Below the pieces are notes generated by a model. The model worked only from the letters and a program-made list of their open reading frames with translations. It did not search any database and had not been told where the DNA came from. The position numbers and the translations under genes are program-made. From Escherichia coli (GTDB lineage Bacteria > Pseudomonadota > Gammaproteobacteria > Enterobacterales > Enterobacteriaceae): 28,938 nt of DNA. This document shows, one piece after another, positions 4,049-22,776 of the stretch. Position 1 is the stretch's first letter. The number at the start of each line of letters is the position of its first letter. The stretch is from assembly GCF_003334315.1 (NCBI RefSeq), contig NZ_QOWR01000059.1; one strand, written 5' to 3'.

Positions 4049-4543
4049 ATGGTTACTTTCCACACCAATCACGGCGATATTGTCATCAAAACTTTTGACG
4101 ATAAAGCACCTGAAACAGTTAAAAACTTCCTGGACTACTGCCGCGAAGGTTTTTACAACAACACCATTTTCCACCGTGTTATCAACGGCTTTATGATTCA
4201 GGGCGGCGGTTTTGAACCGGGCATGAAACAAAAAGCCACCAAAGAACCGATCAAAAACGAAGCCAACAACGGCCTGAAAAATACCCGTGGTACGCTGGCA
4301 ATGGCACGTACTCAGGCTCCGCACTCTGCAACTGCACAGTTCTTCATCAACGTGGTTGATAACGACTTCCTGAACTTCTCTGGCGAAAGCCTGCAAGGTT
4401 GGGGCTACTGCGTGTTTGCTGAAGTGGTTGACGGCATGGACGTGGTAGACAAAATCAAAGGTGTTGCAACCGGTCGTAGCGGTATGCACCAGGACGTGCC
4501 AAAAGAAGACGTTATCATTGAAAGCGTGACCGTTAGCGAGTAA
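4049..4543 (+). CDS. ppiB: Peptidyl-prolyl cis-trans isomerase B (cyclophilin)
   Basis: 164-aa [61 protein letters not shown]..., cyclophilin fold signature. Confidence 0.96.
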
Positions 4544-4545
4544 TC

Positions 4546-5268
4546 GTGGCGACACTCTTTATTGCAGATCTTCATCTCTGCGTGGAAGAACCGGCGATCA
4601 CCGCCGGTTTTCTGCGTTTTTTAGCGGGGGAAGCCCGCAAGGCCGACGCGCTGTATATTCTTGGCGATCTGTTTGAAGCATGGATTGGCGACGACGATCC
4701 CAACCCACTCCATCGCCAGATGGCGGCAGCGATCAAAGCGGTGTCCGATTCCGGCGTTCCCTGTTATTTCATTCATGGCAACCGTGATTTTCTGCTCGGC
4801 AAACGCTTTGCCCGTGAAAGCGGCATGACATTATTGCCGGAAGAAAAGGTGCTCGAACTTTATGGTCGCCGGGTGTTGATTATGCATGGCGACACGCTGT
4901 GCACCGATGACGCGGGTTATCAGGCTTTTCGCGCCAAAGTCCACAAACCCTGGCTGCAAACGCTATTCCTCGCCCTGCCGTTGTTTGTGCGCAAACGCAT
5001 TGCCGCGCGAATGCGAGCGAACAGTAAAGAAGCCAACAGCAGTAAATCGCTGGCGATCATGGACGTTAACCAAAACGCGGTAGTCAGTGCGATGGAAAAA
5101 CATCAGGTGCAATGGCTGATCCACGGGCATACCCATCGCCCGGCGGTACATGAACTTATCGCCAACCAGCAACCTGCTTTTCGCGTGGTACTCGGTGCCT
5201 GGCATACAGAAGGTTCGATGGTGAAAGTCACGGCGGATGACGTTGAGCTGATTCATTTTCCGTTTTAA
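4546..5268 (+). CDS. lpxH: UDP-2,3-diacylglucosamine pyrophosphohydrolase (lipid A biosynthesis)
   Basis: 240-aa [29 protein letters not shown]... calcineurin-like phosphoesterase motifs (DLH, GNRD, GHTH); GTG start 2 nt after ppiB stop. Confidence 0.94.
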
Positions 5269-5298
5269 AAAACCCGCAACTTTGCTGATTTCACAGCC

Positions 5299-5314
5299 AC
5301 GCAACCGTTTTCCT
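5299..5314 (+). promoter_or_regulatory. PurR operator (PUR box) upstream of purEK
   Basis: ACGCAACCGTTTTCCT resembles the PUR-box consensus ACGCAAACGTTTTCNT; located about 70 nt upstream of purE ATG. Confidence 0.6.
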
Positions 5315-5385
5315 TGCTCTCTTTCCGTGCTATTCTCTGTGCCCTCTAAAGCCGAGAGTTGTGCACCACAGGAGTTTTAAGACGC

Positions 5386-5895
5386 ATGTCTTCCCGCAAT
5401 AATCCGGCGCGTGTCGCCATCGTGATGGGGTCCAAAAGCGACTGGGCTACCATGCAGTTCGCCGCCGAAATCTTCGAAATCCTGAATGTCCCGCACCACG
5501 TTGAAGTGGTTTCTGCTCACCGCACCCCCGATAAACTGTTCAGCTTCGCCGAAAGCGCCGAAGAGAACGGTTATCAGGTGATTATTGCGGGCGCAGGCGG
5601 CGCGGCGCACCTGCCAGGTATGATTGCCGCCAAAACGCTGGTGCCGGTGCTGGGCGTGCCAGTACAGAGCGCCGCACTGAGCGGTGTCGATAGCCTCTAT
5701 TCTATCGTACAAATGCCGCGCGGCATTCCGGTGGGTACGCTGGCGATTGGTAAAGCTGGCGCGGCAAACGCGGCGTTACTGGCAGCACAAATTCTTGCGA
5801 CTCATGATAAAGAACTGCACCAGCGTCTGAATGACTGGCGCAATGCCCAGACCGACGAAGTACTGGAAAACCCGGACCCGCGAGGTGCGGCATGA
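5386..5895 (+). CDS. purE: N5-carboxyaminoimidazole ribonucleotide mutase
   Basis: Start taken at ATG 5386 ([20 protein letters not shown]...) preceded by GGAG at 5371..5374; 169 aa; the ORF-track start at 5359 lacks an RBS. Confidence 0.95.
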
Positions 5896-6975: not shown

Positions 6976-7133
<158 letters not shown>

Positions 7134-7153: not shown

Positions 7154-8047
7154 CTACAGCGAAATACAGGTCCCCGCTTCGCCCGCCAGCGTCTCTTCAA
7201 TTCGCGATAACGCCCCAATCCACGCGGGTTTACCACCGCTTCTGACATAACCACTCACCGCCGTTACCTTCGGCCCCATCGAACCATCGGCTTTGGCAAA
7301 TGGCGCTAACTCATCCGGTGTGGCATGGCGAATGGCGCGTTGCTGCGGCGTTCCCCAGTTTTCATATACCGCATCAGCATCAGTGAGGATCACCAGCCCA
7401 TCGGCGTTAATCTGCTCAGCGAGCAACGCAGCAGCGAGATCTTTATCAATCACCGCTTCACTCCCTGCCCCATCTTCCGTCACAGGCACACCGCCGCCGC
7501 CACTGCAAATCACCACATGCCCCTCTTTGAGCAACAACTCGATGGCTTCGCTGTCGAGAATTTTACGCGGTTGCGGAGACGCCACCACCCGGCGCAAATA
7601 TTTACCATCACGTTTCATCTGCCAGCCGTAAGCCGCTTCCAGTGCCTCTTGTTCTTCTGGCTGATAAACCGGACCAATAAATTTCTCTGGCTGCAAAAAC
7701 GCCGGATCATCAGGCGAAACCTCAATGCGCGTCAGCACCGTCGTCACGGGCGGCATCTGCGGCTGTGCGCTCAAACTCTGCGCCAGCATATAGCCAATCA
7801 TCCCCTGACTTTCTGCCACCAGCACATCCAGCGGATACGGTTCTACCTCTTTCCACGCCAGATTCTGCAATGCCAGCAGCCCCACCTGCGGCCCGTTGCC
7901 GTGAACAATCGCCAGCCGATAAGAACGGGCCAGGCGCGCCAGCGCGGGTACAGCACTGGCGATATTGCGATATTGATTTTCTGCCGTCAGCGCCTCACCG
8001 CGCTGGAGTAAGGCGTTTCCCCCAAGAGCTACAACCAGTGTTTTCAT
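7154..8047 (-). CDS. ybcF: Carbamate kinase (ArcC-like; reported as AllK)
   Basis: 297-aa [43 protein letters not shown]... amino-acid kinase family; start overlaps ylbF stop (ATGA). Confidence 0.9.
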
Positions 8048-8859
8048 GGTTTTCCTTGTAATAATTGTTGACCAAGCCAGAACCCCAGCAGTGTATCTGC
8101 CCCTGACGTATGCCCCAGCGCCAGCAGCGAATCAATCGCAACAGCGGTACGTTTCGGGCAACTCAGAGCATGAACAAAGTGCAGGAGTGGCGAGGCGAAA
8201 TATCCTTGCGCGGCATAACGTAAATAACTGACGCTCACCGCTGTGGTAACGAGTTGCAGATTGTCGGAACAGGCAAAAAACTGGCGACCGGAGCGCGCAT
8301 CTAAAGCGCCATAATACCAGGCCGCCAGCAGCATTCCGCTCAGCGTGTCATCATGACTCGGCGTTAATCCGGGGCCTTTACCCAGCCAGTGCCGCCAGTC
8401 GGTCTTAACGCCATTGAGCGCGGCCTGAAAACAGTGACGAAACTGGCGTAACTCAGCAGGCAGCGGATCGCTTGCCGCCAACGCCAGTGGCCCGAAAAGC
8501 CCGGTTTCCTCCGCGCATTGCATCCATGCAGCTGCAAGTGGTTGAGGATGCGCAGGCGGCGTAATACGCAGCAAACAATAACGCTGTGGCTGTTTAACCG
8601 TGAAACGCCCGAGGCGAATCCCTTGAGCCACAACCTGTGGTCGTTCATTGCCGCATAATCCACCGCATAACGCATCGAATTGCGCACGGCGAAGCATCCA
8701 TCCTCCGGGGCCGAAACCACTACCCTGACGATGCAGCGTTAACAGTTCGCCGCTTTCCGTCATCAGGTTAATCGCCCGTCGCCACACTCCCGCTAACCGC
8801 CAGGACTGGCGATAATTCGGTGCACTACGGCTGGCAAGCAGAGGATGGATGATCGTCAT
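8044..8859 (-). CDS. ylbF: YlbF (DUF2877 family; reported subunit of oxamate carbamoyltransferase)
   Basis: Start placed at ATG 8857..8859 ([21 protein letters not shown]...) with GAGGA RBS upstream, giving 271 aa; the longer ORF-track start at 8952 lies inside ylbE. Confidence 0.8.
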
Positions 8860-8869
8860 TGCGCGTTCC

Positions 8870-10129
8870 TCAACCAATCCCCATGCTTTCAGCCAGTGCT
8901 TCCAGCGCCTGTTCAAAACACGCCAGCGGTGCCCGCACAGTGCCTGCGCCAATCTGCCCGATCCCCGCCTCTTTATGGGCGATACCGGTATTGATGAGTG
9001 GCGTAATGCCGGTTTCTACCACGCGACGAATGTCCAGTCCCAGGCACGCGCCCTGAAAATCCCAGCCTGGGATCTGCAACTGCATATTGCGCTCAAGGTA
9101 AATTTCCGCCATCTCTTCAGATACCGCTCTGGCCGCTTCCATGCCACCCGCACCGACAAAGCGCGTTACGCCAGGCGCTGCGATCATTGCCGCACCTCCG
9201 ATACCAAAGGTTTCGGTAATCGCGCTATCGCCCATATCCGGGTTCGCCTGCTCCTGCGAGAAGCCGGTGAAAAACAGACCTTGCGGAGTGTTTACAGGCG
9301 CAGTAAACCAGCGTTCGCCCAGCCCGCTTACCCGAATCCCGAACATATTGCCGTTGCGGGTCATTGCCGTGACGATGCTGCCTGCGCGGATCATCGCGCC
9401 AGCATCCATCGCCGCCTTGCAGTAAGCCATCGCGAGGTTGAGGAAGAACTGATCGGTCACGCTGAGGAAATCCATCACTTCGGCGATGTGCTGTTTATCA
9501 TGATCGAGGCGAGCAATTTGTGGGACCAGCGCACGCATTAACAGTGCAGAGGAAGCAATATTGCGTTGATGGAACTCATCGCCCATCGTAATGCCCTGCG
9601 CCATCATCGCCGTGAGATCGATACCGCGCTCCATGCGCCCCAGCGCCGCGCTTAATACTGGCATTAACACATCGCGCATCCAGCGATGGCGAGTCAGGAC
9701 ATCTTCGCCGTAAGCGCCAAAACGCATCACTTTGCCGATACCTTCGTTGAGGTTGCAGTACGCCCGGTTGCCGTCGGTCACGTTCTCAACCACCAGCATC
9801 GGCATACTGGCAGAAGTAATACCGCCCATTGGACCGACGGCATTCACATGGTGACAAGGAATGAAGTTCACTTCCCCCTGCTCCAGTATTGCCAGCGCCT
9901 GCGCTTCATCTTTCGCCCAGCCTTCGAACAGACATGCGCCCACGCACGCCCCTTTCATGGGTCCGGTCATCTCCTGCCAGCGCATTGGCGGCCCGGCGTG
10001 AAGCAGTGTTTTGCCCTCGTTTAGTTCGCTGATAAGTGAAGAAGCCGGTTGCACATCCAGCCAGTGTGGACGAGCGCGACGAATTTGTTCGATAACCGCA
10101 GCATTGGCTTGCGCCACTGATGTAAACAT
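8870..10129 (-). CDS. ylbE: YlbE (DUF1116 family; reported subunit of oxamate carbamoyltransferase), intact
   Basis: Uninterrupted 419-aa [29 protein letters not shown]...; AAGGGG RBS immediately upstream, overlapping the fdrA stop. Confidence 0.85.
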
Positions 10130-10138
10130 GGGAACCCC

Positions 10139-11806
10139 TTATTGCAAACGTTCTAATAAACGAGCCAGTTTTTTATTGCCGCCGGCGACTGGCGACCATT
10201 GGTAATGCACAACCGGTTTGCTGGCGCTTTGTAGCTCCAGCGCAAAGCTGCGTAATCCGATGTTAATCACGGCGACGTTTTCCAGTAATGACGGTGTGTG
10301 TTGCTGAGTGGCAGGCGAAAGCGGACGAATCAGTGCCGCCGCCAGCAAGGTGGCTTCCGGCAGCGAACTCACTACCGCGATCCCTGCATCTTCCAGCGTG
10401 GCGATTTGCTGCGAGCGGCATTGCGGGTCACGTTCAGTGCCTGTCACCGTGGCAATGGCATACAGTGGTTGATTGTCTGAACGCGCAGCACAGGCTTTTT
10501 GCCAGGCGCTTACCAGCGAGGCGGCAGGATCGGCGGTCGCACCGAAGCCAATCACGACATCAAGCAGCAGCACACGCACTTGCGGTTTAGCGCCGAGATC
10601 GGTAATTAACTGGTTGCGTAAGGTTGGGTCGATCATCGGATGGGGACGCCCGACGGTGTAGAAATCATCGCCGAGGTCAATAATCTGGTGGCCATCGGCG
10701 TCCAGCATCATGCCATGTTGATGGGTATCGTCGGCTTCCACGCCAAGGTGCCCGGCAAGTAATCCCGCCGCTTCGGCGGCCAGCGTACCGCCGGTATACA
10801 AACCGCAAATAAATCCGCTGCTGACAGGTGCTATTGCGTTACGTCGCGCCGTGACGCGTGAAAGCAGGCAAGCCAGGCGTGCGGCCTCATCCAGCGAGGA
10901 GGCAAACCAGACATTCTCGTCGCGGGCCACCGCCGGGGTATAACCTAAAAACAGCGCCACCGTCGGTTTGCCGGTTGCTTTCATGGCATTAACAATTTTC
11001 AGACGCACAGCTTCGGCAGGCGGTTTTGAAACAAATGCCAGCACTTCGCTTTTCTCGTCTGCACTGAGCATTTCCAGCGCCGTCAGCGCACTGATGCCGC
11101 CCACTTCACGGCTGAGGTCGCGCCCGCCAAGGCCAATCGCGTGAGTAATTCCCTCCCCTGCCAGCGCAATCTGCGAACACAGTTCCTGAATCCCGGTACC
11201 GGAAGCGCCAATGACGCCAATATTGCCTTCCGGCATCACGTTAGCAAAAGCCAGCGGCGTGCCGGCAATCATCGACGTACCGCAGTCCGGCCCCATCACC
11301 AGCAAGCCTTTTTCCCGCGCGCGGCTTTTAAGTTGGATTTCATCTTCCAGCGTGACGTTATCGGAGAACATCATCACGTTGAGGTTGCGATCCAGCGCCT
11401 GGTTCGCCAGCTCCGCCGCATACTCGCCAGCCACTGAAATCAGCGCCAGACTGGCGTCGGGTAATTTCTGACAGGCACTGTCCCAGCGACGCACCTGCGT
11501 CAAGGCCTGGCTGCTGCCTGACCCCTGCGCCAGTTGTTTTAGCGCCTCTTCAAGCTGCTGCATAATCGCCTACGCGATCCCCGCATCCGCCGCTTCGCTA
11601 CGAATTGTCACGCAAATATCGTTCGACGTGGCGTTATTAAAATCGTCATGCCAGAAACCTGTGGTATCTAATAACGCTTTATTGGCGGGCGTACCCATCA
11701 TTACGGAAACATCATCAACATTTTCTGATTCGCTGAGTTTTCGTGAAATAATCATTAAACTGACCGAATCCTGAAAACACCCTTTTTTAATAAAGGCGTG
11801 GATCAT
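10139..11806 (-). pseudogene. fdrA: fdrA (succinyl-CoA-synthetase-like protein; reported AllF) interrupted by an in-frame TAG at codon 79
   Basis: ORFs 11570..11806 (78 aa, ...AADAGIA) and 10139..11563 (474 aa, MQQLEE...) are in the same frame. Minus strand reads GCG-TAG-GCG-ATT-ATG, so 78 + stop + 2 + 474 = 555 codons, the length I recall for K-12 FdrA. Confidence 0.75.
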
Positions 11807-12043
11807 AACAACTCCTTAAAAATTGCACCCATGGCAATTGCACGAGCAGTGTTAATGTGGCGATTACGGTATCGATGACAACGGGTAAATAAGGTGATGA
11901 ATATTACACAGGGATTATTAACAAAAGAATTCAAATAACCGCCATGCTATTACGTGTTATTTTTTAATAAGCGTGGTTGTTTTAAAAACCAGGTTAAAAG
12001 AGAGCGGATTATCAAATAAATTCTAACTATATTTTTTTGCCTG

Positions 12044-12063
12044 TCTGGATCACATAATCCAGA
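12044..12063. promoter_or_regulatory. Palindrome TCTGGAT-N6-ATCCAGA in the fdrA/allD divergent promoter region (candidate regulator site)
   Basis: Perfect 7-bp inverted repeat about 60 nt upstream of allD ATG in a 316-bp AT-rich intergenic region. Confidence 0.3.
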
Positions 12064-12122
12064 TATTTTCCCTGTATGTTAATTGCAGTCATGCTTCACA
12101 CCGTCGTTAAAAAGGAAGACAG

Positions 12123-13172
12123 ATGAAAATCAGTCGGGAAACACTCCACCAGCTAATCGAGAATAAACTCTGCCAGGCTGGGTTAAAACGTGAGCACGCT
12201 GCAACCGTGGCTGAAGTATTGGTTTACGCCGATGCCAGAGGGATCCACTCTCATGGCGCGGTGCGCGTTGAATACTACGCAGAACGCATTTCAAAAGGCG
12301 GCACCAACCGCGAACCGGAGTTTCGTCTTGAAGAAACCGGGCCGTGCTCGGCAATTTTACATGCCGACAATGCCGCCGGACAGGTCGCGGCGAAAATGGG
12401 TATGGAACATGCCATCAAAACCGCCCAGCAAAAAGGCGTTGCGGTGGTCGGTATCAGCCGGATGGGTCACAGCGGCGCAATCTCTTATTTTGTGCAGCAG
12501 GCAGCCCGCGCTGGATTAATTGGCATTTCGATGTGCCAGTCCGATCCAATGGTGGTGCCGTTTGGCGGCGCGGAAATTTACTACGGTACTAACCCATTGG
12601 CCTTTGCCGCGCCGGGAGAAGGCGATGAGGTCCTTACCTTTGATATGGCGACTACCGTACAGGCATGGGGAAAAGTGCTCGACGCCCGCTCGCGTAATAT
12701 GTCTATTCCGGATACCTGGGCGGTCGATAAAAACGGTGCACCAACAACCGATCCGTTCGCGGTACATGCTCTGCTCCCCGCCGCCGGGCCGAAAGGGTAT
12801 GGCCTGATGATGATGATTGACGTCCTCTCAGGCGTCTTACTCGGCTTACCGTTCGGGCGACAGGTTAGTTCGATGTATGACGATTTACACGCCGGGCGTA
12901 ATTTGGGGCAATTACATGTAGTTATTAACCCGAACTTTTTCTCCTCCAGCGAATTATTCCGTCAACATCTTAGCCAGACCATGCGCGAATTAAATGCCAT
13001 TACCCCCGCGCCCGGTTTTAATCAGGTTTATTATCCCGGACAGGATCAGGATATTAAACAACGCAAAGCCGCCGTCGAAGGCATCGAAATTGTTGATGAT
13101 ATTTACCAGCATTTAATTTCCGACGCGCTTTATAACACGTCATACGAAACGAAAAATCCCTTTGCGCAATAA
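12123..13172 (+). CDS. allD: Ureidoglycolate dehydrogenase
   Basis: 349-aa ORF MKISRETLHQLIENKLCQAGLKREHAATVAEVLVYADARGIHSHGAVRVEYY... (Ldh_2 / malate-L-lactate dehydrogenase family). Confidence 0.93.
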   Translation: MKISRETLHQLIENKLCQAGLKREHAATVAEVLVYADARGIHSHGAVRVEYYAERISKGGTNREPEFRLEETGPCSAILHADNAAGQVAAKMGMEHAIKTAQQKGVAVVGISRMGHSGAISYFVQQAARAGLIGISMCQSDPMVVPFGGAEIYYGTNPLAFAAPGEGDEVLTFDMATTVQAWGKVLDARSRNMSIPDTWAVDKNGAPTTDPFAVHALLPAAGPKGYGLMMMIDVLSGVLLGLPFGRQVSSMYDDLHAGRNLGQLHVVINPNFFSSSELFRQHLSQTMRELNAITPAPGFNQVYYPGQDQDIKQRKAAVEGIEIVDDIYQHLISDALYNTSYETKNPFAQ

Positions 13173-13193
13173 TTATTGAGACAGGACTTTCTT

Positions 13194-14429
13194 ATGATTA
13201 CACATTTTCGTCAAGCCATAGAAGAAACGCTGCCCTGGCTTTCCTCTTTTGGCGCTGACCCAGCGGGTGGGATGACCCGTTTACTTTATTCGCCGGAATG
13301 GCTGGAAACCCAGCAGCAATTTAAAAAAAGAATGGCAGCAAGCGGGCTGGAAACACGTTTCGATGAAGTGGGGAATTTATACGGTCGCCTGAGTGGCACC
13401 GAATATCCACAGGAAGTGGTTCTGAGCGGTTCGCATATCGATACCGTGGTTAACGGCGGTAACCTCGACGGGCAATTCGGCGCGCTGGCGGCGTGGCTGG
13501 CAATTGACTGGTTGAAAACGCAATACGGCGCGCCGTTACGTACGCTTGAAGTGGTGGCGATGGCGGAAGAAGAAGGCAGCCGCTTCCCGTATGTCTTCTG
13601 GGGCAGTAAAAATATCTTTGGGCTGGCGAATCCTGACGACGTGCGGAATATCTGTGATGCCAAAGGAAATAGTTTTGTCGATGCGATGAAGGCTTGCGGA
13701 TTTACTCTGCCGAACGCCCCACTAACTCCGCGTCAGGATATTAAAGCCTTTGTCGAACTGCATATCGAACAGGGCTGTGTGCTGGAAAGTAATGGGCAAT
13801 CAATTGGCGTGGTGAATGCAATTGTCGGGCAACGTCGCTATACGGTGACGCTGAACGGCGAATCAAACCATGCAGGCACCACGCCGATGGGTTATCGTCG
13901 TGATACGGTTTACGCTTTCAGTCGCATTTGCCATCAGTCGATCGAAAAAGCGAAAAAGATGGGCGACCCGCTGGTGCTGACCTTTGGCAAAGTAGAGCCG
14001 CGCCCGAATACGGTGAATGTGGTGCCGGGTAAAACCACGTTCACCATTGATTGTCGTCATACCGACGCCGCCATCCTGCGTGATTTCACCCAACAGTTAG
14101 AAAACGACATGCGGGCGATTTGCGATGAAATGGACATTGGTATTGATATCGATTTATGGATGGACGAAGAACCCGTGCCGATGAATAAGGACCTGGTCGC
14201 CACCCTGACAGAATTGTGTGAAAGTGAAAAACTGAATTACCGGGTGATGCACAGTGGTGCCGGGCATGACGCGCAAATTTTCGCGCCTCGCGTACCAACC
14301 TGCATGATTTTCATTCCCAGCATCAACGGGATCAGCCATAACCCGGCGGAACGCACCAATATTACCGACCTTGCCGAAGGGGTCAAAACGTTGGCAATCA
14401 TGCTTTATCAACTTGCCTGGCAGAAATAA
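13194..14429 (+). CDS. allC: Allantoate amidohydrolase (M20 peptidase family)
   Basis: ATG 13194 (MITHFRQAIEETLPWLSSFGADPAGG...) with GAGACAGGA RBS, 411 aa; the ORF-track start at 13176 is a TTG 18 nt upstream. Confidence 0.93.
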   Translation: MITHFRQAIEETLPWLSSFGADPAGGMTRLLYSPEWLETQQQFKKRMAASGLETRFDEVGNLYGRLSGTEYPQEVVLSGSHIDTVVNGGNLDGQFGALAAWLAIDWLKTQYGAPLRTLEVVAMAEEEGSRFPYVFWGSKNIFGLANPDDVRNICDAKGNSFVDAMKACGFTLPNAPLTPRQDIKAFVELHIEQGCVLESNGQSIGVVNAIVGQRRYTVTLNGESNHAGTTPMGYRRDTVYAFSRICHQSIEKAKKMGDPLVLTFGKVEPRPNTVNVVPGKTTFTIDCRHTDAAILRDFTQQLENDMRAICDEMDIGIDIDLWMDEEPVPMNKDLVATLTELCESEKLNYRVMHSGAGHDAQIFAPRVPTCMIFIPSINGISHNPAERTNITDLAEGVKTLAIMLYQLAWQK

Positions 14430-14439
14430 GGAGTCATAA

Positions 14440-15225
14440 ATGGGATATTTAAATAACGTCACCGGTTACCGCGATGATTTACTGGCTAACCGTGCGATTG
14501 TGAAACACGGTAATTTCGCACTGTTAACCCCGGATGGTCTGGTAAAAAATATTATTCCGGGCTTTGAAAATTGTGACGCGACAATCCTCTCCACGCCAAA
14601 GCTGGGTGCCTCTTTTGTTGATTATCTGGTCACACTGCATCAAAACGGCGGCAACCAACAGGGCTTCGGTGGCGAAGGCATTGAAACGTTCCTGTATGTG
14701 ATCTCTGGAAATATCACTGCCAAAGCCGAAGGCAAAACATTTGCCTTAAGCGAAGGTGGCTATCTTTATTGCCCGCCAGGCTCCTTAATGACGTTTGTTA
14801 ACGCCCAGGCCGAAGACAGCCAAATCTTTTTATATAAGCGCCGCTATGTTCCGGTAGAAGGCCATGCACCGTGGCTGGTTTCTGGCAATGCCAGCGAACT
14901 GGAACGCATTCACTATGAAGGTATGGATGATGTGATCCTGCTGGATTTTCTGCCCAAAGAGTTAGGTTTTGATATGAACATGCATATCCTCTCTTTTGCA
15001 CCAGGTGCCAGCCACGGTTATATCGAAACACACGTTCAGGAACACGGTGCCTATATTCTTTCCGGTCAGGGGGTTTATAACCTCGACAATAACTGGATCC
15101 CGGTGAAAAAAGGCGATTACATCTTTATGGGCGCTTATTCTTTACAGGCTGGTTATGGTGTAGGGCGTGGTGAAGCGTTCAGCTATATTTACTCGAAAGA
15201 TTGTAACCGCGACGTAGAGATTTAA
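14440..15225 (+). CDS. allE: (S)-ureidoglycine aminohydrolase (cupin)
   Basis: 261-aa ORF MGYLNNVTGYRDDLLANRAIVKHGNFALLTPDGL...; AGGAG RBS; follows allC by 10 nt. Confidence 0.9.
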   Translation: MGYLNNVTGYRDDLLANRAIVKHGNFALLTPDGLVKNIIPGFENCDATILSTPKLGASFVDYLVTLHQNGGNQQGFGGEGIETFLYVISGNITAKAEGKTFALSEGGYLYCPPGSLMTFVNAQAEDSQIFLYKRRYVPVEGHAPWLVSGNASELERIHYEGMDDVILLDFLPKELGFDMNMHILSFAPGASHGYIETHVQEHGAYILSGQGVYNLDNNWIPVKKGDYIFMGAYSLQAGYGVGRGEAFSYIYSKDCNRDVEI

Positions 15226-15267
15226 GTCATACCACTCGCCTGATTATTTTTAGCTATGTTGGATTTT

Positions 15268-15294
15268 GCCACGGTTTATACCGTGGCTTTTTTT
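15268..15294 (+). terminator. Rho-independent terminator of allD-allC-allE operon
   Basis: GCCACGG-TTTATA-CCGTGGC followed by TTTTTTT. Confidence 0.75.
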
Positions 15295-15302
15295 GTAACA
15301 TT

Positions 15303-15406
15303 GCCTGATGCGCTTCGCTTATCAGGCCTACATGATCTCTGCAATATATAGAATTTGCGCGATTTTCAGGAAGGATATGGTACTCATGCCGCATCCGGCA
15401 TGAGTA
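15303..15406. repeat. REP-like palindromic elements between convergent allE and glxK
   Basis: GCCTGATGCGCTTCGCTTATCAGGCCTACA (REP-type) at 15303..15332 and palindrome TACTCATGCC-GCATCC-GGCATGAGTA at 15381..15406. Confidence 0.6.
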
Positions 15407-15452
15407 CTGCACTCTTATGCGATATAAATCGCATCCGCTTTAAAGGTAAGGG

Positions 15453-16598
15453 TTAGTTTTTAATTCCCTGACCTATTTTAATGGCGCAGGCAATATTTCG
15501 CGCGCTGTTGAAGAGATTGGTTTCACCGCTGGCGAGCACTTCGGCTAAAGGTGCCAGACGAGGCAAAATGCTGAATACCGCGTCAATGCCGTACTGGTGC
15601 ACCACTTCCACGCCATCACCCAATACGCCAGCAATCCCAATCACCGGTACATTAAACTGCTTCGCCACCGACGCCACACCCAGCGGCGCTTTACCGCCTG
15701 CCGTTTGCGAGTCGATGCGCCCTTCCCCGGTAATCACCAGTGCTGCGCCCTGCACTGCCTGCGCAAGATTGACCGCATTCAACACAATTTCAATGCCCGG
15801 TTTAATATCCGCATTGAGAAATACCGCCGCCGCAATACCCATACCGCCCGCAGCGCCGCCGCCCGCCATCTGGCAGACATTAATTTCAGTTTGCTGTTGT
15901 AAAACACGGGCGTAATTTTGCAGCCCCTGTTCAAGTTCTTCGACCATCTCCGGCGTTGCCCCTTTTTGCGGGCCAAACACCGCCGCCGCGCCGCGTGCCC
16001 CTACCAGCGGGTTATCAACGTCACATGCTACTTCAATATGGCAATTCGCCAGACGCGGATCGCATTCATCCATCTCAATGCTTGCCACGCGCGCTAAATT
16101 ACCACCGTTTGCCGCCAGCGCCTGACCGTCGGCATCAAGGAAACGCACACCGAGCGCCTGCGCCATGCCCATACCGCCGTCGACCGTCGCACTGCCGCCA
16201 ATGCCGAGAATAATATGGCGAATGTCGTTATCCAGCGCATGACGAATTAACTCCCCCGTACCAAAACTGGAGGCCAGCAACGGATTACGCTTTTCAGGCG
16301 CGACCAGCATCAGGCCACTTGCTGCCGCCATCTCAATCACCGCCGTTTTCCCGTCGCCGGTAAGGCCATAAAAAGCATTCACTTTTTCGCCCATCGGCCC
16401 GCAGACTTCAAGCGTCACGATGTTGCCGCCCGTCGCGGCGACCATCGCATCCACCGTCCCTTCGCCGCCATCCGCTATCGGCAAACAGATATAGTTCGCA
16501 TCGGGAAAGAGGGTCGAAAACCCGGCTTTAATTGCCTGACAACATTTTTCTGCACTTAAGCTCTCTTTAAAAGAGTCTGGCGCAATGACAATCTTCAT
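15453..16598 (-). CDS. glxK: Glycerate kinase II
   Basis: [48 protein letters not shown]..., 381 aa from ATG at 16598. Confidence 0.93.
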
Positions 16599-16619
16599 TA
16601 TCAATCCTTTTTCAACAAA

Positions 16620-17927
16620 TTATTCGATGCGTTCCCACGGAATAAGGTTATCCATAAGAACAGCCAGTAAAATCCCGACCAATAAGCCGTTACTGAGCAG
16701 AGGACGAAGCGTTAATGGAAGGTCTTGCAGATACACAGGCGGTAATGCCATTAAAAATATGCCGACAAATAACGGCAATGCGAGTCGATAAATATTGCGA
16801 GCGGTAAACGTTATTTGCTGGCTAAACACCAGCGCGGAAAAGAGTAAAGGCAGATAAGAAACCAGCATGACCGCACTACTCACGGGTAAAGGGATACTGC
16901 AAAACAGTCGCGTGAGTGCAGGAACCAGCGCCACCAGCAGGCAAATAACGCTGCCATAAATAAACGAACGCCGCGTGTAATCGCCAGTCTGGGTTAATAA
17001 ACCAATGGATGAAACAAACGGTGAAAATGGAATTACCGCCAGCGGTACGGTTATCAGCGTCATAAATCCGGTCGCCACAAAGCTACGACGATAACGCGTA
17101 TTCCCTGCGCCCTGCTGCGGATAAAAAACATCCGTGCCCCGAATCGCACCGTAGGTATTGCTGATATTTACCAGACCTGTAATCACCGCCGTCAGAATAA
17201 TTCCCGGCGACAAAGCACCGCCACTGCCGAGCGGGAACCACTGCCAGTGCAACTCACCGGAGAGCGAATGCGAAGAAGGAAAGCAAAAGTACCACAACAA
17301 CCAGCCGGTTATCGTACCGACCAGCAGGCCATAACGGGCAAAACGTTGCGGCAGAAAGATAATCATCGCCAGTACCAGGCACATCACCGCCACCGAGAGC
17401 GCGAACGGTGGTAACTGAATTTTAAAATTTGGGTCGGCTATGCCAAACGGCAGCCCGAGCATACCTTTGAAAAAGATAGTGGTCAGCTGCGCGCCCAGCA
17501 TCAACATAAACAAGACCATCACCGACGGCGTAAATAACCGTGCCAGGCGATGGCCTAATCCGCTAAAACCAATCAACATCGTCAGCACGCCGGAGAGTGC
17601 AATCCCCACCGCCAGACTGGTAGCGATATCGTTGATCGGTGTCCCGCGCGATGCTTCGCCAAGGGTGATAGTAAGGATGGTTCCCCACCACAGGCCACCC
17701 GGCCCTTCCATAATAGCGCGACGATGACCGCAGAACGCCTGAGCGAAGCAGGCCAGTGCGGTAGCAAGAAAAGCATATTGCGTGAGCGTAAGCAGGCTAC
17801 TTTGCGGCAACTGAAAAGCAGAAAGTAGCGTAGGAGGAACCACAACCGTGTTGCAAAAAATAAAGAAAAACCACTGAAATCCTGATAACAGGCTTTCGCG
17901 GCTGACTGCAAAATTGAACATAAACAC
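16620..17927 (-). CDS. ybbY: Putative purine/xanthine permease (NCS2 family)
   Basis: 435-aa polytopic membrane ORF MFMFNFAVSRESLLSGFQWFFFIFCNTVVVPP...; alternative start 2 codons downstream at 17921. Confidence 0.85.
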   Translation of the reverse strand: MFMFNFAVSRESLLSGFQWFFFIFCNTVVVPPTLLSAFQLPQSSLLTLTQYAFLATALACFAQAFCGHRRAIMEGPGGLWWGTILTITLGEASRGTPINDIATSLAVGIALSGVLTMLIGFSGLGHRLARLFTPSVMVLFMLMLGAQLTTIFFKGMLGLPFGIADPNFKIQLPPFALSVAVMCLVLAMIIFLPQRFARYGLLVGTITGWLLWYFCFPSSHSLSGELHWQWFPLGSGGALSPGIILTAVITGLVNISNTYGAIRGTDVFYPQQGAGNTRYRRSFVATGFMTLITVPLAVIPFSPFVSSIGLLTQTGDYTRRSFIYGSVICLLVALVPALTRLFCSIPLPVSSAVMLVSYLPLLFSALVFSQQITFTARNIYRLALPLFVGIFLMALPPVYLQDLPLTLRPLLSNGLLVGILLAVLMDNLIPWERIE

Positions 17928-17977
17928 ACCTTAACCGGAGAATGCCCGCCGCAAGGACGGGCATTGCAGGGGCCAGA

Positions 17978-19339
17978 TTACTGCTGATGTTTAAGGATAA
18001 ATTGACCTTTCGGCGCAACAGGGAAGCCCTGTTCAATGTCGTAAATCACATCACCACGTAAGATGGTTTTCGTGATACGCGCGCCAATGGTACGGCCAAC
18101 ATACGGGCTGACTTTGTGGCGATATTCCAGATCGTCATTGGTAAGAACATAGCTGCTATTCGGCTGAATGAAGACGAAGTCGGCATCTTTTCCTGGGGCG
18201 ATACGGCCTTTTTGCTGCAGACCGAAAATATCTGCTGCGTTAGTCGCCATTAATTTGCCGAACATTGGCAGAGACATACCGCGTTTCTGTACCGCTTCAT
18301 CGAACATCACGTCCATGCAGCTTTGCAGACCGGCGATACCGCCCCATGCTTTCATGATGTTACCGGCTTTCATTTCCGGCGGGCATGGAGAGTGGTCGGA
18401 AACCAGGCAGTCGATTTCACCGTTAAACAGTTTTTCCCACATGCCTTTCTGGTTTTCCAGATCGCGGATCGGCGGTGAACACTTCGCCAGAGTACCGATT
18501 TCTTCGAACTGATCGGTATCCAGTACAAAGTAATGCGGGCAGGATTCACAAGTAACGTCCTGACCTTCCTGACGTGCACGAGTCACTTCCTCAACACCTT
18601 CCGGGCTGCTGACGTGGCAAACGTGCAGACGGCAACCAGCAACTTTCGCCAGATACAGTACGCGGCGAATTGCTTCCACTTCGGTAAATACCGGACGCGA
18701 AGCCACATAGTCATGAGCGGTTACGCGACCTTCACGCTTCGCTTCTTCGCCCAGTTCGTCACAAATCAGCGCGTTTTCGCAGTGCACCAGCACCGGCTGA
18801 CCCAGTTCGCCCAGCTTCTGCGCACCTTTGAAGAACTGCCAGTCGTTTACATCACGGAAGTCGTTGTCGATACCGCGATCGCCACAGGTCGCAACGAAGC
18901 ATTTGAAGCCGACAACGCCCACTTCATCCAGCTCATGCAGACGGTCGATGTTGTAAGACACCAGGCCACCGAGTTGTGCCGCATCAATAGTCAGCTTGCC
19001 TTTAGCGGCATCGAACTTCAGTTCAATTGAAGCGCGGTCAACCGTTGCAGGCAGCTGGTTGAGCGGCATTTCGATCATGGTGGTGATACCACCTTTTGCC
19101 GCTGCGCGAGTACCGGTTTCATAACCTTCCCAGTGGCTACGACCCGGTTCAGAAATATGGGTGTGCGCATCAACCATGCCCGGCGAAACCACCAGACCAG
19201 ACGCATCCATAACTTCTTTTGCATCGCCCAGATCCTGACCGATAGCAGCAATTTTTCCGCCTTTAACGGCGATATCTACAACGCGAGCTTCGTTTTCTAA
19301 AATAACGGTGCCGTTTTTAATGATTAAATCAAAAGACAT
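17978..19339 (-). CDS. allB: Allantoinase (cyclic amidohydrolase)
   Basis: 453-aa [80 protein letters not shown]... with metal-binding HxH motif. Confidence 0.95.
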
Positions 19340-19398
19340 AACAAACTCCTTGTAAAATACAGATTGGTTTTTAACTCAATGTTCAATATCGGGATTAA

Positions 19399-20853
19399 TT
19401 AACCTATGGTTTTTTGCTCTCCTGTTTTTTCTGCTGTTGTACGTTTCTTTAATAAGGCGTAGGCCGCAAAGGCGACGATGACGCCGACAAACCATGAAAC
19501 ACGCGATAACGGTTCCATAAAGTGAATAAACTTACCGCCAAGAGATAAAATAACGGCCACCAGAGTTACTGAAAACGCAGTGAGGTTAAAACCGTTATCG
19601 TAATATTTATAATCGCCAGGTGCGGTATACAGTTCATCAAGATTAATTTGTCCGCGCATCACCACAAAATAATGCGCCATCATGACACCAATTACCGGAC
19701 CAAGCATTCCGCCGATAATATCGAGGAAAAGATAAATGCTGTCCTGATTTTCCATTAATTTTCACGGGCAGATCAGCAAGCTGATAATACTGGCAATCAG
19801 TACGCCGTTTTTATAGGTCAGTTTTGTCGGTGCAATGGCGGCAATCTGATAACCGGCTGGAATAATATTACCGGTCGCGTTAGTGGAGATAGTTGTCATC
19901 AGAATAACCAGTACCGCAAAGAACGAGGCGAACAGGCTGTCCCAACGCTGAACAATATCCAGCACGTTCCAGGTATCAGCGCCGTAGTGAATACTGGCTC
20001 CGGCAATAATACATACCCCGGCGACCGCAAACAGAATATAGGCCACAACTAAACCCAGCGTTTGCCCCAGCGCCTGCTCACGAAACGAGTGGGCGTTTTG
20101 CGTAAAGTCGGATGCGCTCACCGCCGGTGCCGCCCAGACCGCAACTACCGCGTTAATCACCACCAGGAACAGGAAGCCACCGTTTTCTGCTTTCTGAATA
20201 CCGCTCGGAATGTAGTCAAAGATTGGACCGATCCCGATCAGTGAAATCGCCCAAATCGCCATACCGCCGAAAACGATATAGATGCACGGGTTAAGAATGG
20301 CAGTGAATTTATTTAAAACTTTGCCACCGCCAAAACCTATACCAACGTTGACCAGCCAGAAGATTAAGAAAGTAATTAAGCCCGGTAGAGAAAGGCCTAA
20401 CAGAGTGAAATCACCACCGAGAGTTAAAAATCCCGGCCAGATTTTGCCAATCAGAATCAAGCAGGCCAGTGACCCCGCGTAACATTGCAAACCAAACCAC
20501 ATGATGGCGGCAATTCCGCCCCTTAATAATCCGGGAAACAGTGCACCACGTACACCGTAAGAAGCACGCAGGATCATGGCAAAAGGCACACCGTATTTAC
20601 TGCCCGCAGCACCGTTTAATACCATTACCGCGGCAATGAAAAAGGCGCTGAGGATAATTGCCAGCATAATACTAAAGGTAGACAAGCCGAGAATAAAAAA
20701 GCCGCCGACCATCACATAATTGGGAACGTTATGAACCGAACCCATCCATAAGGTAAAATAGTTAAATGTTTTCCAGGTCCGCTGGCTTTGCGTTTTCGGC
20801 AATAGATCTTCGCTATAGCCGCGTTGCTGGAATAGTTTTCTCTGATGTTCCAT
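19399..20853 (-). pseudogene. ybbW: Allantoin permease (NCS1 family) interrupted by an in-frame TGA at codon 364
   Basis: ORFs 19762..20853 (363 aa ...LLICP) and 19399..19755 (118 aa MENQDS...) share a frame. Minus strand reads ...TGA-AAA-TTA-ATG-GAA, so 363 + stop + 2 + 118 = 484 codons, the length I recall for K-12 YbbW/AllP. Confidence 0.75.
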
Positions 20854-20990
20854 AAATCCCTCTTAATTTCACGTATCGAATAACGTTGTTTTAATCTAGC
20901 TATGAGGAACAAATAAAATAAAAATATTATTTTTAATACTGAAGCAACATCTTTGGCTGCTTTCTTTTTTAATATTGCTGGCCGATTCAT
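20712..20990 (-). CDS. ybbV: Hypothetical small protein YbbV (doubtful ORF overlapping ybbW 5' end)
   Basis: 92-aa ORF MNRPAILKKKAAKDVASVLKIIFLFYLFLIARLKQ... in the position of annotated K-12 ybbV; AT-rich, overlaps ybbW by about 140 nt. Confidence 0.3.
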   Translation of the reverse strand: MNRPAILKKKAAKDVASVLKIIFLFYLFLIARLKQRYSIREIKRDLWNIRENYSSNAAIAKIYCRKRKASGPGKHLTILPYGWVRFITFPIM

Positions 20991-21021
20991 TTTCTGATAT
21001 CGGCCATTTTTATTGCGGGTA

Positions 21022-21900
21022 TCAGGCCAGTTTATGGTTAGCCATTAATTCCAGCGCCTGCACTAACGCAGAGTGATCCAACTGGCTGCCACCGTTTGCC
21101 GCACAGGTATTAAATAACTCCTGGCAGGTCGCAGTGTTTGGCAGGTTCAGCGCAAGTGCTTTCGCACTTTGCAGTGCCAGGTTGAGATCTTTCTGGTGCA
21201 GAGCGATTTTGAAGCCCGGATTAAAGGTGCGTTTAATCATACGCTCGCCATGAACTTCCAGAATACGTGAGGAAGCAAAGCCGCCCATCAGCGCCTGGCG
21301 CACACGTACCGGGTCCGCACCAGCTTTTGAAGCAAATAGCAGGGCTTCAGAAACCGCTTCAATATTGAGCGCCACGATAATCTGATTTGCCACTTTGCAG
21401 GTTTGACCATCGCCGTTACCGCCCACGAGGGTGATATTTTTACCGAGCAGTTCAAACAGCGGTTTAACACGTTCAAATACCGCTTCATCACCGCCAACCA
21501 TAATCGACAACGTCCCTTCACGCGCACCGATTTCACCGCCGGAGACTGGCGCATCGAGATAATCGCCGCCCAGTTCATTCACCTGACGAGCGAAACGCTT
21601 AGTTTCAATCGGGGAAATGGAGCTCATATCAACAATGGTTTTGCCCTTCAGCGAGGCTTTGGTACAACCATTTTCACCGAACAGAACTTCTTCAACCTGA
21701 GGTGTGTCCGGCACCATAATAAAAATGATGTCCGATGCTTCCGTTACCTGGCGAGCAGTTTCAACACTGACGGCACCCAGTGACAGTAATTCATCAGCAA
21801 CCGGTCCAATGGTCGTGACATGTAATTGATGACCGGCACGCGCCAGATTAATGGCCATCGGTGTACCCATAATGCCTAAGCCAATAAATCCCAGTTTCAT
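21022..21900 (-). CDS. glxR: Tartronate semialdehyde reductase (2-hydroxy-3-oxopropionate reductase)
   Basis: 292-aa ORF MKLGFIGLGIMGTPMAINLARAGHQLHVTT... NAD-binding GxGxxG of the 3-hydroxyisobutyrate dehydrogenase family. Confidence 0.93.
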   Translation of the reverse strand: MKLGFIGLGIMGTPMAINLARAGHQLHVTTIGPVADELLSLGAVSVETARQVTEASDIIFIMVPDTPQVEEVLFGENGCTKASLKGKTIVDMSSISPIETKRFARQVNELGGDYLDAPVSGGEIGAREGTLSIMVGGDEAVFERVKPLFELLGKNITLVGGNGDGQTCKVANQIIVALNIEAVSEALLFASKAGADPVRVRQALMGGFASSRILEVHGERMIKRTFNPGFKIALHQKDLNLALQSAKALALNLPNTATCQELFNTCAANGGSQLDHSALVQALELMANHKLA

Positions 21901-21999
21901 AATTAACCTCTTTTAAATTTCGCTTTTCCTGAATTCAGACAACACGATCCCCAGCCAACTTAGCGGCCTAAAAAAGCATTGTCTGAATAGCGTTACGTT

Positions 22000-22776
22000 T
22001 TAACGGTACGGATCCATCCAGCGTAAACCGGCTTCCGTGGTGGTTTGGGGTTTATATTCACACCCAACCCAACCGTTGTAGTCAGAATTTTCGATTACCT
22101 TAAAGAGATAATCATAATTAATTTCTCCGGTTCCCGGTTCGCCGCGATGCGGATTATCGGCAATTTGCAGGTGACCAATTTTATCAGCCCACTGAGTCAT
22201 GGTGTTGGTTAATTCACCTTCCATCCGCTGCATATGATAAATGTCATACTGAATTTTCAAATTGCAGCAACCAACATCATCAATCAATTTCAGCGCCTGC
22301 CGAGTTCCGGTGAGATGGAAACCAGGAATATCAAAATGGTTAATAGGTTCAATCAGTAATAAAATATCTTCTTTCATCAGCATATTCGCGGCATAACGCA
22401 GGTTTTCTACAAGCGTTGCGTGAATCTGTTCACTGCTGAAACCAGCCGGCGTTTTACCGACCAGACAGTTAATTTTTTTATTACCCAGCGCACGGGCATA
22501 ACGAATCGCTGCTGCTACGCCATCCCGAAACTCTTCTTCACGGCCAGGAATACAGGCAATACCGCGCTCCCCCGCCGCCCAGTCACCCGCCGGTAAATTG
22601 TGCAGCGTATGTTCGAGTTTATTACTCGCCAGCACATGTTTTAATTCTTCAATGTCGTAGTCATAAGGAAACATAAATTCAACGCCGCGAAAACCACACT
22701 GCGCAGCTTTCTCAAAACGGGCGAGAAAATCATATTCTCCAAATAACATCGATAAATTAGCAGAGAAACGTAACAT
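22000..22776 (-). CDS. hyi: Hydroxypyruvate isomerase
   Basis: 258-aa ORF MLRFSANLSMLFGEYDFLARFEKAAQCGFRGVEF... (xylose-isomerase-like TIM barrel). Confidence 0.93.
   Translation of the reverse strand: MLRFSANLSMLFGEYDFLARFEKAAQCGFRGVEFMFPYDYDIEELKHVLASNKLEHTLHNLPAGDWAAGERGIACIPGREEEFRDGVAAAIRYARALGNKKINCLVGKTPAGFSSEQIHATLVENLRYAANMLMKEDILLLIEPINHFDIPGFHLTGTRQALKLIDDVGCCNLKIQYDIYHMQRMEGELTNTMTQWADKIGHLQIADNPHRGEPGTGEINYDYLFKVIENSDYNGWVGCEYKPQTTTEAGLRWMDPYR

Follow-up and report, generated by a model that had tools for sequence, protein, structure and literature searches.

The window analyzed in this study is a whole stretch of Escherichia coli DNA of 28,938 nucleotides (contig NZ_QOWR01000059.1). 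It carries cysS-ppiB-lpxH-purEK, followed by the minus-strand genes ybcF-ylbF-ylbE-fdrA, which are divergent from allD-allC-allE, and then the rest of the allantoin regulon. The gene order is identical to that of strain NT1F31 and of K-12, where allD is divergent from allF, which is followed by allG, allH, and allK. The window sequence shares about 99.97% identity with a group of phylogroup-A-like isolates, obtained from pigs, poultry, and humans; for K-12 the figure is 99.2%.

The four genes fdrA-ylbE-ylbF-ybcF have been renamed allF-allG-allH-allK; AllF, AllG, and AllH make up the oxamic transcarbamylase, while AllK is the catabolic carbamate kinase (PMC11326118). The earlier note on this DNA had named fdrA as the first gene of an operon with the other three, in agreement with their co-transcription as revealed by RT-PCR (PMC9843812; PMC11326118). 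Transcription of allFGHK is activated by AllS and ArcA (PMC12535856). In the window, allG/ylbE (8870-10129), allH/ylbF (8044-8859), and allK/ybcF (7154-8047), all on the minus strand, are intact, allG having a private A202V substitution. The allF (fdrA) frame itself (10139..11806, minus strand) comprises 555 codons and a stop codon, and has one interruption.

The amber codon of allF

It was found that the minus strand reads GCG GGG ATC GCG TAG GCG ATT ATG CAG CAG at 11555-11584, a sequence occurring once in the window. The TAG (11570..11572, minus strand) is codon 79 of allF and corresponds to a CAG>TAG change, Q79*. The list of open reading frames has a 78-aa ORF (11570-11806) and a 474-aa ORF (10139-11563) in a common frame. 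The former has 78 codons (11573..11806, minus strand) and encodes the HMA_AllF_N domain (PF27530), while the latter (10139..11563, minus strand) runs from an in-frame ATG at 11563, the codon for Met82, to the native stop codon and encodes the CoA_binding and Ligase_CoA domains. The 78 codons, the stop codon, the 2 codons behind it, and the 474 codons add up to 555, which is the length of K-12 FdrA (555 aa) and is also the length given in Table 5 of PMC11326118. The sequence, the coordinates, the codon arithmetic, the 555-codon length of the intact gene, and the ATG opening the 474-codon ORF were all as the earlier note had described them.

The earlier note had also ascribed the split to a single nonsense substitution without rearrangement. 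This was borne out by a base-by-base comparison with the fdrA gene of strain CP53, which differs at one of 1,668 nucleotides, namely gene position 235 (window position 11572). Likewise, the closest alleles have no difference in allF from the window beyond CAG>TAG. The plus strand has an A at 11572, while its relatives have a G; since the G is present in all five strains compared (K-12 MG1655, CP53, NT1F31, 13C1065T, and cM2a), the A is the derived state. The K-12 allF gene (b0518) resembles the window gene in locus, synteny, and 555-codon length, and the two proteins have nine residue differences besides the stop. However, codon 79 is CAG in K-12 and TAG here, so that no full-length subunit is possible.

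Is this interruption found in other E. coli strains? An annotated fdrA gene ("acyl-CoA synthetase FdrA") matches the stretch in 5,411 of the 5,426 complete RefSeq E. coli genomes. A colinear copy is present in 5,403 of the 5,426, so the split-ORF pattern is not due to chance. As the earlier note had suggested, codon 79 was compared with reference alleles: a 61-mer centred on this codon has matches in 5,372 complete genomes, all with at most 98.4% identity, and the TAG occurs in none of them. A TAG-bearing 43-mer had no match in the JGI metagenome contigs. The allF gene of the window thus has the features of a nonsense pseudogene, being otherwise colinear and having a derived in-frame stop codon which is absent from the orthologous alleles. 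An insertion hot-spot at codon 78/79 was not found among the cluster members, whose truncations lie at various other positions.

Private substitutions and the reality of the allele

The window lineage has seven private substitutions, which all lie within 9525-21322. On the plus strand they are G>A at 9525 (allG, A202V), G>A at 11572 (allF, Q79*), C>T at 11905 (between allD and allF, at -99 from the allF ATG), T>C at 13110 (allD, Y330H), C>T at 19762 (allW, W364*, TGG>TGA), C>T at 20238 (allW, V206I), and G>A at 21322 (glxR, synonymous). Six of the seven are G:C>A:T changes. None of them lies in a CCWGG site when the contexts were inspected by eye for a Dcm deamination hot-spot. The C>T at 11905 lies in the divergent allD-allF control region (11807..12122), and at 99 nucleotides upstream of the allF ATG it falls inside the -142/-83 fragment upstream of allF to which ArcA-P binds in EMSA (PMC12535856).

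The second private stop codon, W364* of the allantoin transporter gene allW (ybbW; 19399..20853, minus strand), was missed in the earlier note; it is 8 kb from the allF stop. The TGA is at 19762-19764, and the same gene has the V206I change (20238). In the complete genomes this stop is absent, as none of 1,920 matches was exact. The cut falls where a hydrophobic segment ends and a short loop is about to begin, and it removes the last three hydrophobic segments; the NCBIfam allantoin transporter score of the AllW product is 695, which is below the cut-off of 800. The stop codon is found in the context TGA AAA TTA ATG, with an in-frame ATG two codons on (6-nt spacing).

As the allF change is a single-base difference found in no complete reference genome, it was assessed whether the TAG might be a sequencing or assembly error, the true codon being CAG. 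This is very unlikely, because the same TAG is present in two independent read-set assemblies. Contigs of SRR10357290 and ERR271230 (Logan assemblies from different archives) carry the TAG; they show 100% identity to the window along 14,702 nucleotides in the former and 8,241 nucleotides in the latter, so that no base differs over these 8-15 kb, and both also carry those other private SNPs which they cover. Five assembled contigs have a record of the exact 78-aa product, one of them being a contig of SRR12406425. The linked truncated AllW product is also found on five contigs, among them one from a third run, SRR3824135, and the allF site is outside any homopolymer. The evidence comes from assembled read sets, and it indicates that Q79* is a lineage-private mutation for which an artefact is very unlikely. 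No mention of ERR271230 or SRR10357290 was found in the literature.

Several other loci were discarded as evidence for the allele. The SRR12406425 contig ends at codon 79 with four mismatches, and the L011 locus begins just downstream of codon 79; both are uninformative. Five loci with the exact 474-aa product (L007-L010 and L012) all have CAG at codon 79, and their 474-aa calls arose because a contig ended there or an IS1 element adjoined.

The severed N-terminal domain and the fate of the message

In the wild-type AllF, Pfam assigns CoA_binding (PF02629) to residues 193-287 and Ligase_CoA (PF00549) to residues 336-491, while PF27530 (HMA_AllF_N) is assigned to the 78-aa fragment in the precomputed annotation. 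The listed full-length orthologues of other genera (554-555 aa) have all three domains in one chain; here, TAG79 splits the domains over two ORFs. Against the NCBIfam model NF004760, whose curated cut-off is 433 bits, the wild-type allele scores 1037.6 bits (positions 1-555), the 474-aa ORF 868.9 bits (model positions 82-555), and the 78-aa ORF 146.3 bits (1-78).

Ten AllF orthologues with 75-85% identity were used to assess conservation. Conservation is highest in residues 1-69 (94.5% mean column identity, 77% of the columns invariant); residues 101-555 have 85.5% mean column identity, and the segment between these blocks, residues 70-100, is variable (69%). The stop codon falls in this variable segment. 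Eight of the ten orthologues have Q at position 79, and the other two have R. At position 82, M is found in E. coli alone, and L, V, or F in the other orthologues; since Met82 is not conserved, the 474-codon ORF does not encode a conserved alternative product.

More distant homologues tell the same. An exhaustive search was used to select the best 150 representatives, mostly with 35-50% identity. In 141 of these, the alignment begins at the N-terminus of the homologue and at residue 10 or earlier of the query. The remaining nine comprise seven that start at residues 18-30, which look like matters of start-codon calling, one C-terminal fragment, and one that starts at residue 102. No natural start resembling Met82 was found among these 150. 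No convincing stand-alone N-domain gene or N-domain-less homologue was found either, the N-domain occurring alone only in truncated enterobacterial alleles. These alignments show that the N-terminal domain cut off by the stop is integral to the family and under strong constraint. Since it is so conserved and is kept in nearly all homologues, a product without it is probably inactive or badly impaired.

Might the stop codon be read through, by virtue of a host amber suppressor (supE/glnV44-like, inserting Gln) or of a programmed recoding signal? CAG>TAG is a classic supE-suppressible change, and insertion of Gln restores the exact wild-type protein. Even a low natural read-through of UAG would insert Gln and restore wild-type AllF, which counts against inactivation. 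The base after the stop is a G (UAGG), a further point in favor of read-through. On the other hand, suppressors are rare in natural isolates, TAG79 is present in no other E. coli genome examined, and the companion stop in allW is a TGA, so that an amber suppressor is unable to rescue allW. No tRNA gene was found in the window. The lack of conservation of the stop (0 of 5,372 genomes; Q or R in the orthologues) rules out programmed read-through or recoding. Altogether, the probability that the allF stop is read through is considered very low.

Another possible fate is restart of translation. In TAG-GCGATT-ATG, the AUG82 codon is in frame and begins 6 nucleotides after the stop, a spacing of a few nucleotides such as that of coupled ORF pairs. 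An AGG lies at -8 to -6 of AUG82; the best anti-SD duplex is formed by a GGGG at about -19 and has -5.7 kcal/mol, as compared with -8.7 for the native start. AUG82 itself sits in a predicted hairpin. From these predictions, de novo initiation at AUG82 looks weak. Early lacI and T4 rIIB nonsense mutants reinitiate at nearby in-frame start codons. Those mutants and the reinitiation pairs of PMC10666635 and PMC6728339 resemble the present case in having an in-frame AUG a few nucleotides past the stop; unlike those systems, the window gene, for which restart is putative, has no strong SD sequence and its downstream start codon is not conserved. Reinitiation data from E. coli reporter pairs are available for the +2, +14, and +38 nt spacings; the +2 nt spacing cost 5-70% of reinitiation and the +38 nt spacing 80-100% (PMC10666635). 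By analogy with such pairs, termination-reinitiation at AUG82 is plausible.

The crystal structure 3DMY ("Protein fdrA") in the PDB corresponds to K-12 residues 82-555, its substitutions matching K-12, and it is described as a homodimer (PMC11326118). The leftover 474-codon ORF of the window shares the Met82 start and the Gln555 end with the crystallized construct. As this fragment was expressed and crystallized, the restart product could fold. 3DMY is an engineered expression construct, while the fragment here would be made only if ribosomes initiated internally, or restarted, on the natural mRNA.

Thus, it was considered whether the split allF gene is still functional, with ribosomes restarting at AUG82, the two polypeptides reassembling with AllG and AllH, no Rho polarity arising, and allW behaving alike. 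The 6-nt distance, which is near the efficient +2 nt reporter spacing (PMC10666635), the AGG before AUG82, the solved structure of the 82-555 fragment, and the position of the stop between the conserved blocks are in line with this, as is the allW cut at a loop between hydrophobic segments. Moreover, both private stops (allF and allW) have an in-frame ATG exactly 6 nucleotides (+3 codons) after the stop, for which the chance is 0.0005-0.006, a post hoc figure; such a pattern would arise if tolerated alleles were limited to non-polar ones that permit restart. The baseline for it was the 627 possible G:C>A:T nonsense sites in the genes of the window, among which an ATG follows at +3 codons in 2.2% and within three codons in 7.5%. 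However, the SD-like pairing is weak and the start codon lies in the hairpin, Met82 is not conserved in the orthologues, no natural form lacking the N-domain was seen among the best 150 representatives, and no precedent is known for fragment complementation of AllF. A working split gene is therefore quite unlikely.

A further step would be to regard allF UAG79 and allW UGA364 as restart-competent split-gene alleles, cut at domain or loop boundaries, partly functional, and sparing the downstream genes. If this were true, natural selection would filter nonsense alleles by their restart capacity. The related strain cM2a has an allG stop without a nearby restart codon, indicating that there is no general restart filter in the clade, and I regard the idea as hardly probable.

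The earlier note had pointed out that the stop could be polar on the downstream genes. Without restart, the ribosomes would leave about 1.4 kb of the allF mRNA untranslated and exposed. Past the stop, C-rich and G-poor segments of this mRNA are found heuristically at nt 1105-1242 and 1441-1566, so that Rho-dependent polarity on allGHK is possible, and reinitiation 6 nucleotides downstream of TAG79 may reduce it. Apart from the stop, the rest of allF as well as allG, allH, and allK are undamaged, an observation which speaks against inactivation and would mean either that the lesion is young or that the split gene is working.

Probable decay of the allantoin regulon

Independent lesions were found in the same gene cluster of near-identical relatives. 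The cM2a strain has an internal stop in allG (W356*) and an IS1 in allW, in CP53 an IS5 replaces allD/allC and part of allE, and 14EC017 and SRR21143493 have an IS1 in fdrA. In addition, many different early FdrA truncations are present on Mb-scale contigs of public assemblies. These fdrA and all-cluster pseudogene alleles resemble the window allele in being independent inactivating lesions of the same dispensable anaerobic pathway in close backgrounds, while they differ in molecular event and position, and Q79* is found in no complete genome. The simplest reading is that a dispensable anaerobic pathway is recurrently decaying in this phylogroup-A clade, as in ordinary pathway decay.

Is the loss adaptive, such that inactivation of the oxamate branch and of allantoin uptake has been selected repeatedly in the clade? 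The recurrence of the lesions in relatives would fit this, and so would two figures from the window: of the private coding G:C>A:T changes, which number five, two are nonsense, where mutation by itself would be expected to give 4.6% (p = 0.02), and an 11.8-kb stretch of the allantoin cluster holds all seven private SNPs (p = 0.02). It is also known that an allF point mutant alters the fermentation flux in laboratory evolution (PMC8550087). That FdrA variant, from a methanogen co-culture evolution, is D296Y in MG1655 and is not the allele of the window (PMC8550087). However, both p values of about 0.02 are post hoc, are affected by the selection of the window, and were discounted. Given that the window was flagged for one stop, the probability of at least one more stop in the remaining four changes is 0.17. 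The relatives have two to four private SNPs each across the same span, so that the seven of the window are unexceptional. The recurrent lesions can be explained equally well by relaxed selection, the anaerobic pathway being dispensable, and adaptive loss is considered unlikely.

Probably, then, a recent lineage-private C>T change turned Gln79 into an amber codon and inactivated AllF while the allantoin regulon of this lineage was decaying, a process to which the opal stop of allW belongs as well. The C>T in the CAG codon of allF would mean that full-length AllF is no longer made. Translation from the native start would stop after the 78-residue HMA-like domain, while some ribosomes may restart at AUG82 and yield a 474-residue body without the N-domain, which would have little or no activity. 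Anaerobic allantoin degradation would lose its oxamate branch, with no oxamate formed and the flux directed to glyoxylate and oxalate, whereas growth on allantoin would change little. The loss of enzyme activity, the restart, and the polarity are deduced, whereas the mutation, its restriction to this lineage, its occurrence in independent read sets, the domain boundaries and conservation, and the second stop were demonstrated.

What phenotype is known for the loss of allF? Oxamate formation requires allF, and none of the three subunits can be dispensed with (PMC11326118 Tables 1-3; PMC8550087 Table 4). The ΔfdrA mutant of MG1655 consumes allantoin and reaches an OD of 0.6, as compared with 0.7 for the wild type (PMC8550087 Table 4; PMC11326118 Table 1), while it forms zero oxamate and has raised oxalate (PMC8550087 Table 4; PMC11326118 Tables 1-3). 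Since the knock-out grows nearly as well as the wild type, growth on allantoin, the test suggested in the earlier note, cannot discriminate between an active and an inactive allele, whereas oxamate would.

Q79* had not been catalogued before and is of a familiar type, a lineage-private nonsense pseudogene allele in a dispensable catabolic operon; it is an ordinary gene-inactivating mutation, and not a new biological feature. For annotation, both allF and allW of the isolate should be flagged as pseudogenes with an internal stop. Because the 474-aa ORF scores far above the NF004760 cut-off, pipelines may call it an intact, shorter FdrA. The 6-nt geometry of the stop and the ATG in both genes, together with an ORF matching 3DMY, offers a convenient natural test of whether AllF needs its N-domain. 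The strain is predicted to be without the ATP-yielding oxamate/carbamoyl-phosphate branch when it degrades allantoin anaerobically. It is a further instance of the seemingly recurrent decay of the allantoin cluster in a phylogroup-A clade.

Private substitutions and a second stop in the allantoin cluster

It was found that allF (fdrA) is not the only transport or catabolic gene of the cluster with a stop codon restricted to this lineage. The allantoin transporter gene allW (ybbW, 19399-20853) has a lineage-private nonsense mutation, W364* (TGG to TGA, 19762-19764 on the minus strand), and a private V206I substitution (20238). The W364* allele was found in no complete E. coli genome; five Logan contigs, which are assemblies of public read sets, carry it. 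In total, seven substitutions are private to the lineage when K-12 MG1655 and the close relatives CP53, NT1F31, 13C1065T, and cM2a are compared (window positions 9525, 11572, 11905, 13110, 19762, 20238, and 21322). All seven lie inside 11.8 kb of the allantoin cluster, while none was found in the left flank (9.3 kb of housekeeping genes) or in the right flank (7.6 kb). G:C to A:T changes account for six of the seven, and the coding changes comprise two nonsense, three missense, and one synonymous substitution.

The remaining change is a C to T in the allD-allF intergenic region (11905), 99 nucleotides upstream of the allF ATG; on the allF strand it reads as G to A (TGTGATATT to TGTAATATT). The position falls within a 60-bp fragment (-142 to -83) that is bound by ArcA-P in EMSA (PMC12535856).

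In-frame ATG codons after the two stops

An in-frame ATG lies exactly 6 nt 3′ of each private stop, as TAG GCG ATT ATG in allF (11561-11572, minus strand) and as TGA AAA TTA ATG in allW (19753-19764, minus strand). Such an arrangement is available at 2.2% of the possible G:C to A:T nonsense sites of the window, and the joint chance of this geometry at both private stops, computed post hoc, is 0.0005-0.006. The truncated 474-aa ORF of allF (10139-11563) scores 868.9 bits against NCBIfam NF004760, whose cut-off is 433. Thus, automated annotation could name this ORF as a normal FdrA and thereby mask the pseudogene. The gene calls of Logan contigs already enter the 474-aa ORF as a separate protein.

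Ends of the window

On its left side (1-205), the window begins within an IS1 end (1-204), which is immediately followed by the 3′ portion of sfmA (annotated as fimA). Relative to NT1F31, 1,911 bp are absent here, namely an N-terminal remnant of sfmD together with sfmC and the greater part of sfmA. A comparable deletion adjoining IS1, but with another end point (window 362), is present in strain 13C1065T. Since an IS3 copy adjoins the position matching the right end (28938) in relatives, the window probably represents an entire draft contig, flanked by IS1 on the left and IS3 on the right. Window position 7105, between purK and allK, is a common break point of Logan contigs from two runs.

Lesions of the cluster in close relatives

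Other lesions were found in backgrounds near-identical to the window. Strain cM2a has allG W356* and an IS1 in allW (9370-10629 and 19899-22130 of the cM2a locus), CP53 has an IS5 in place of allD, allC, and part of allE (4192-5582 of the CP53 locus), and both 14EC017 and SRR21143493 have an IS1 insertion in fdrA. These independent lesions suggest that the allantoin cluster decays recurrently in this clade.
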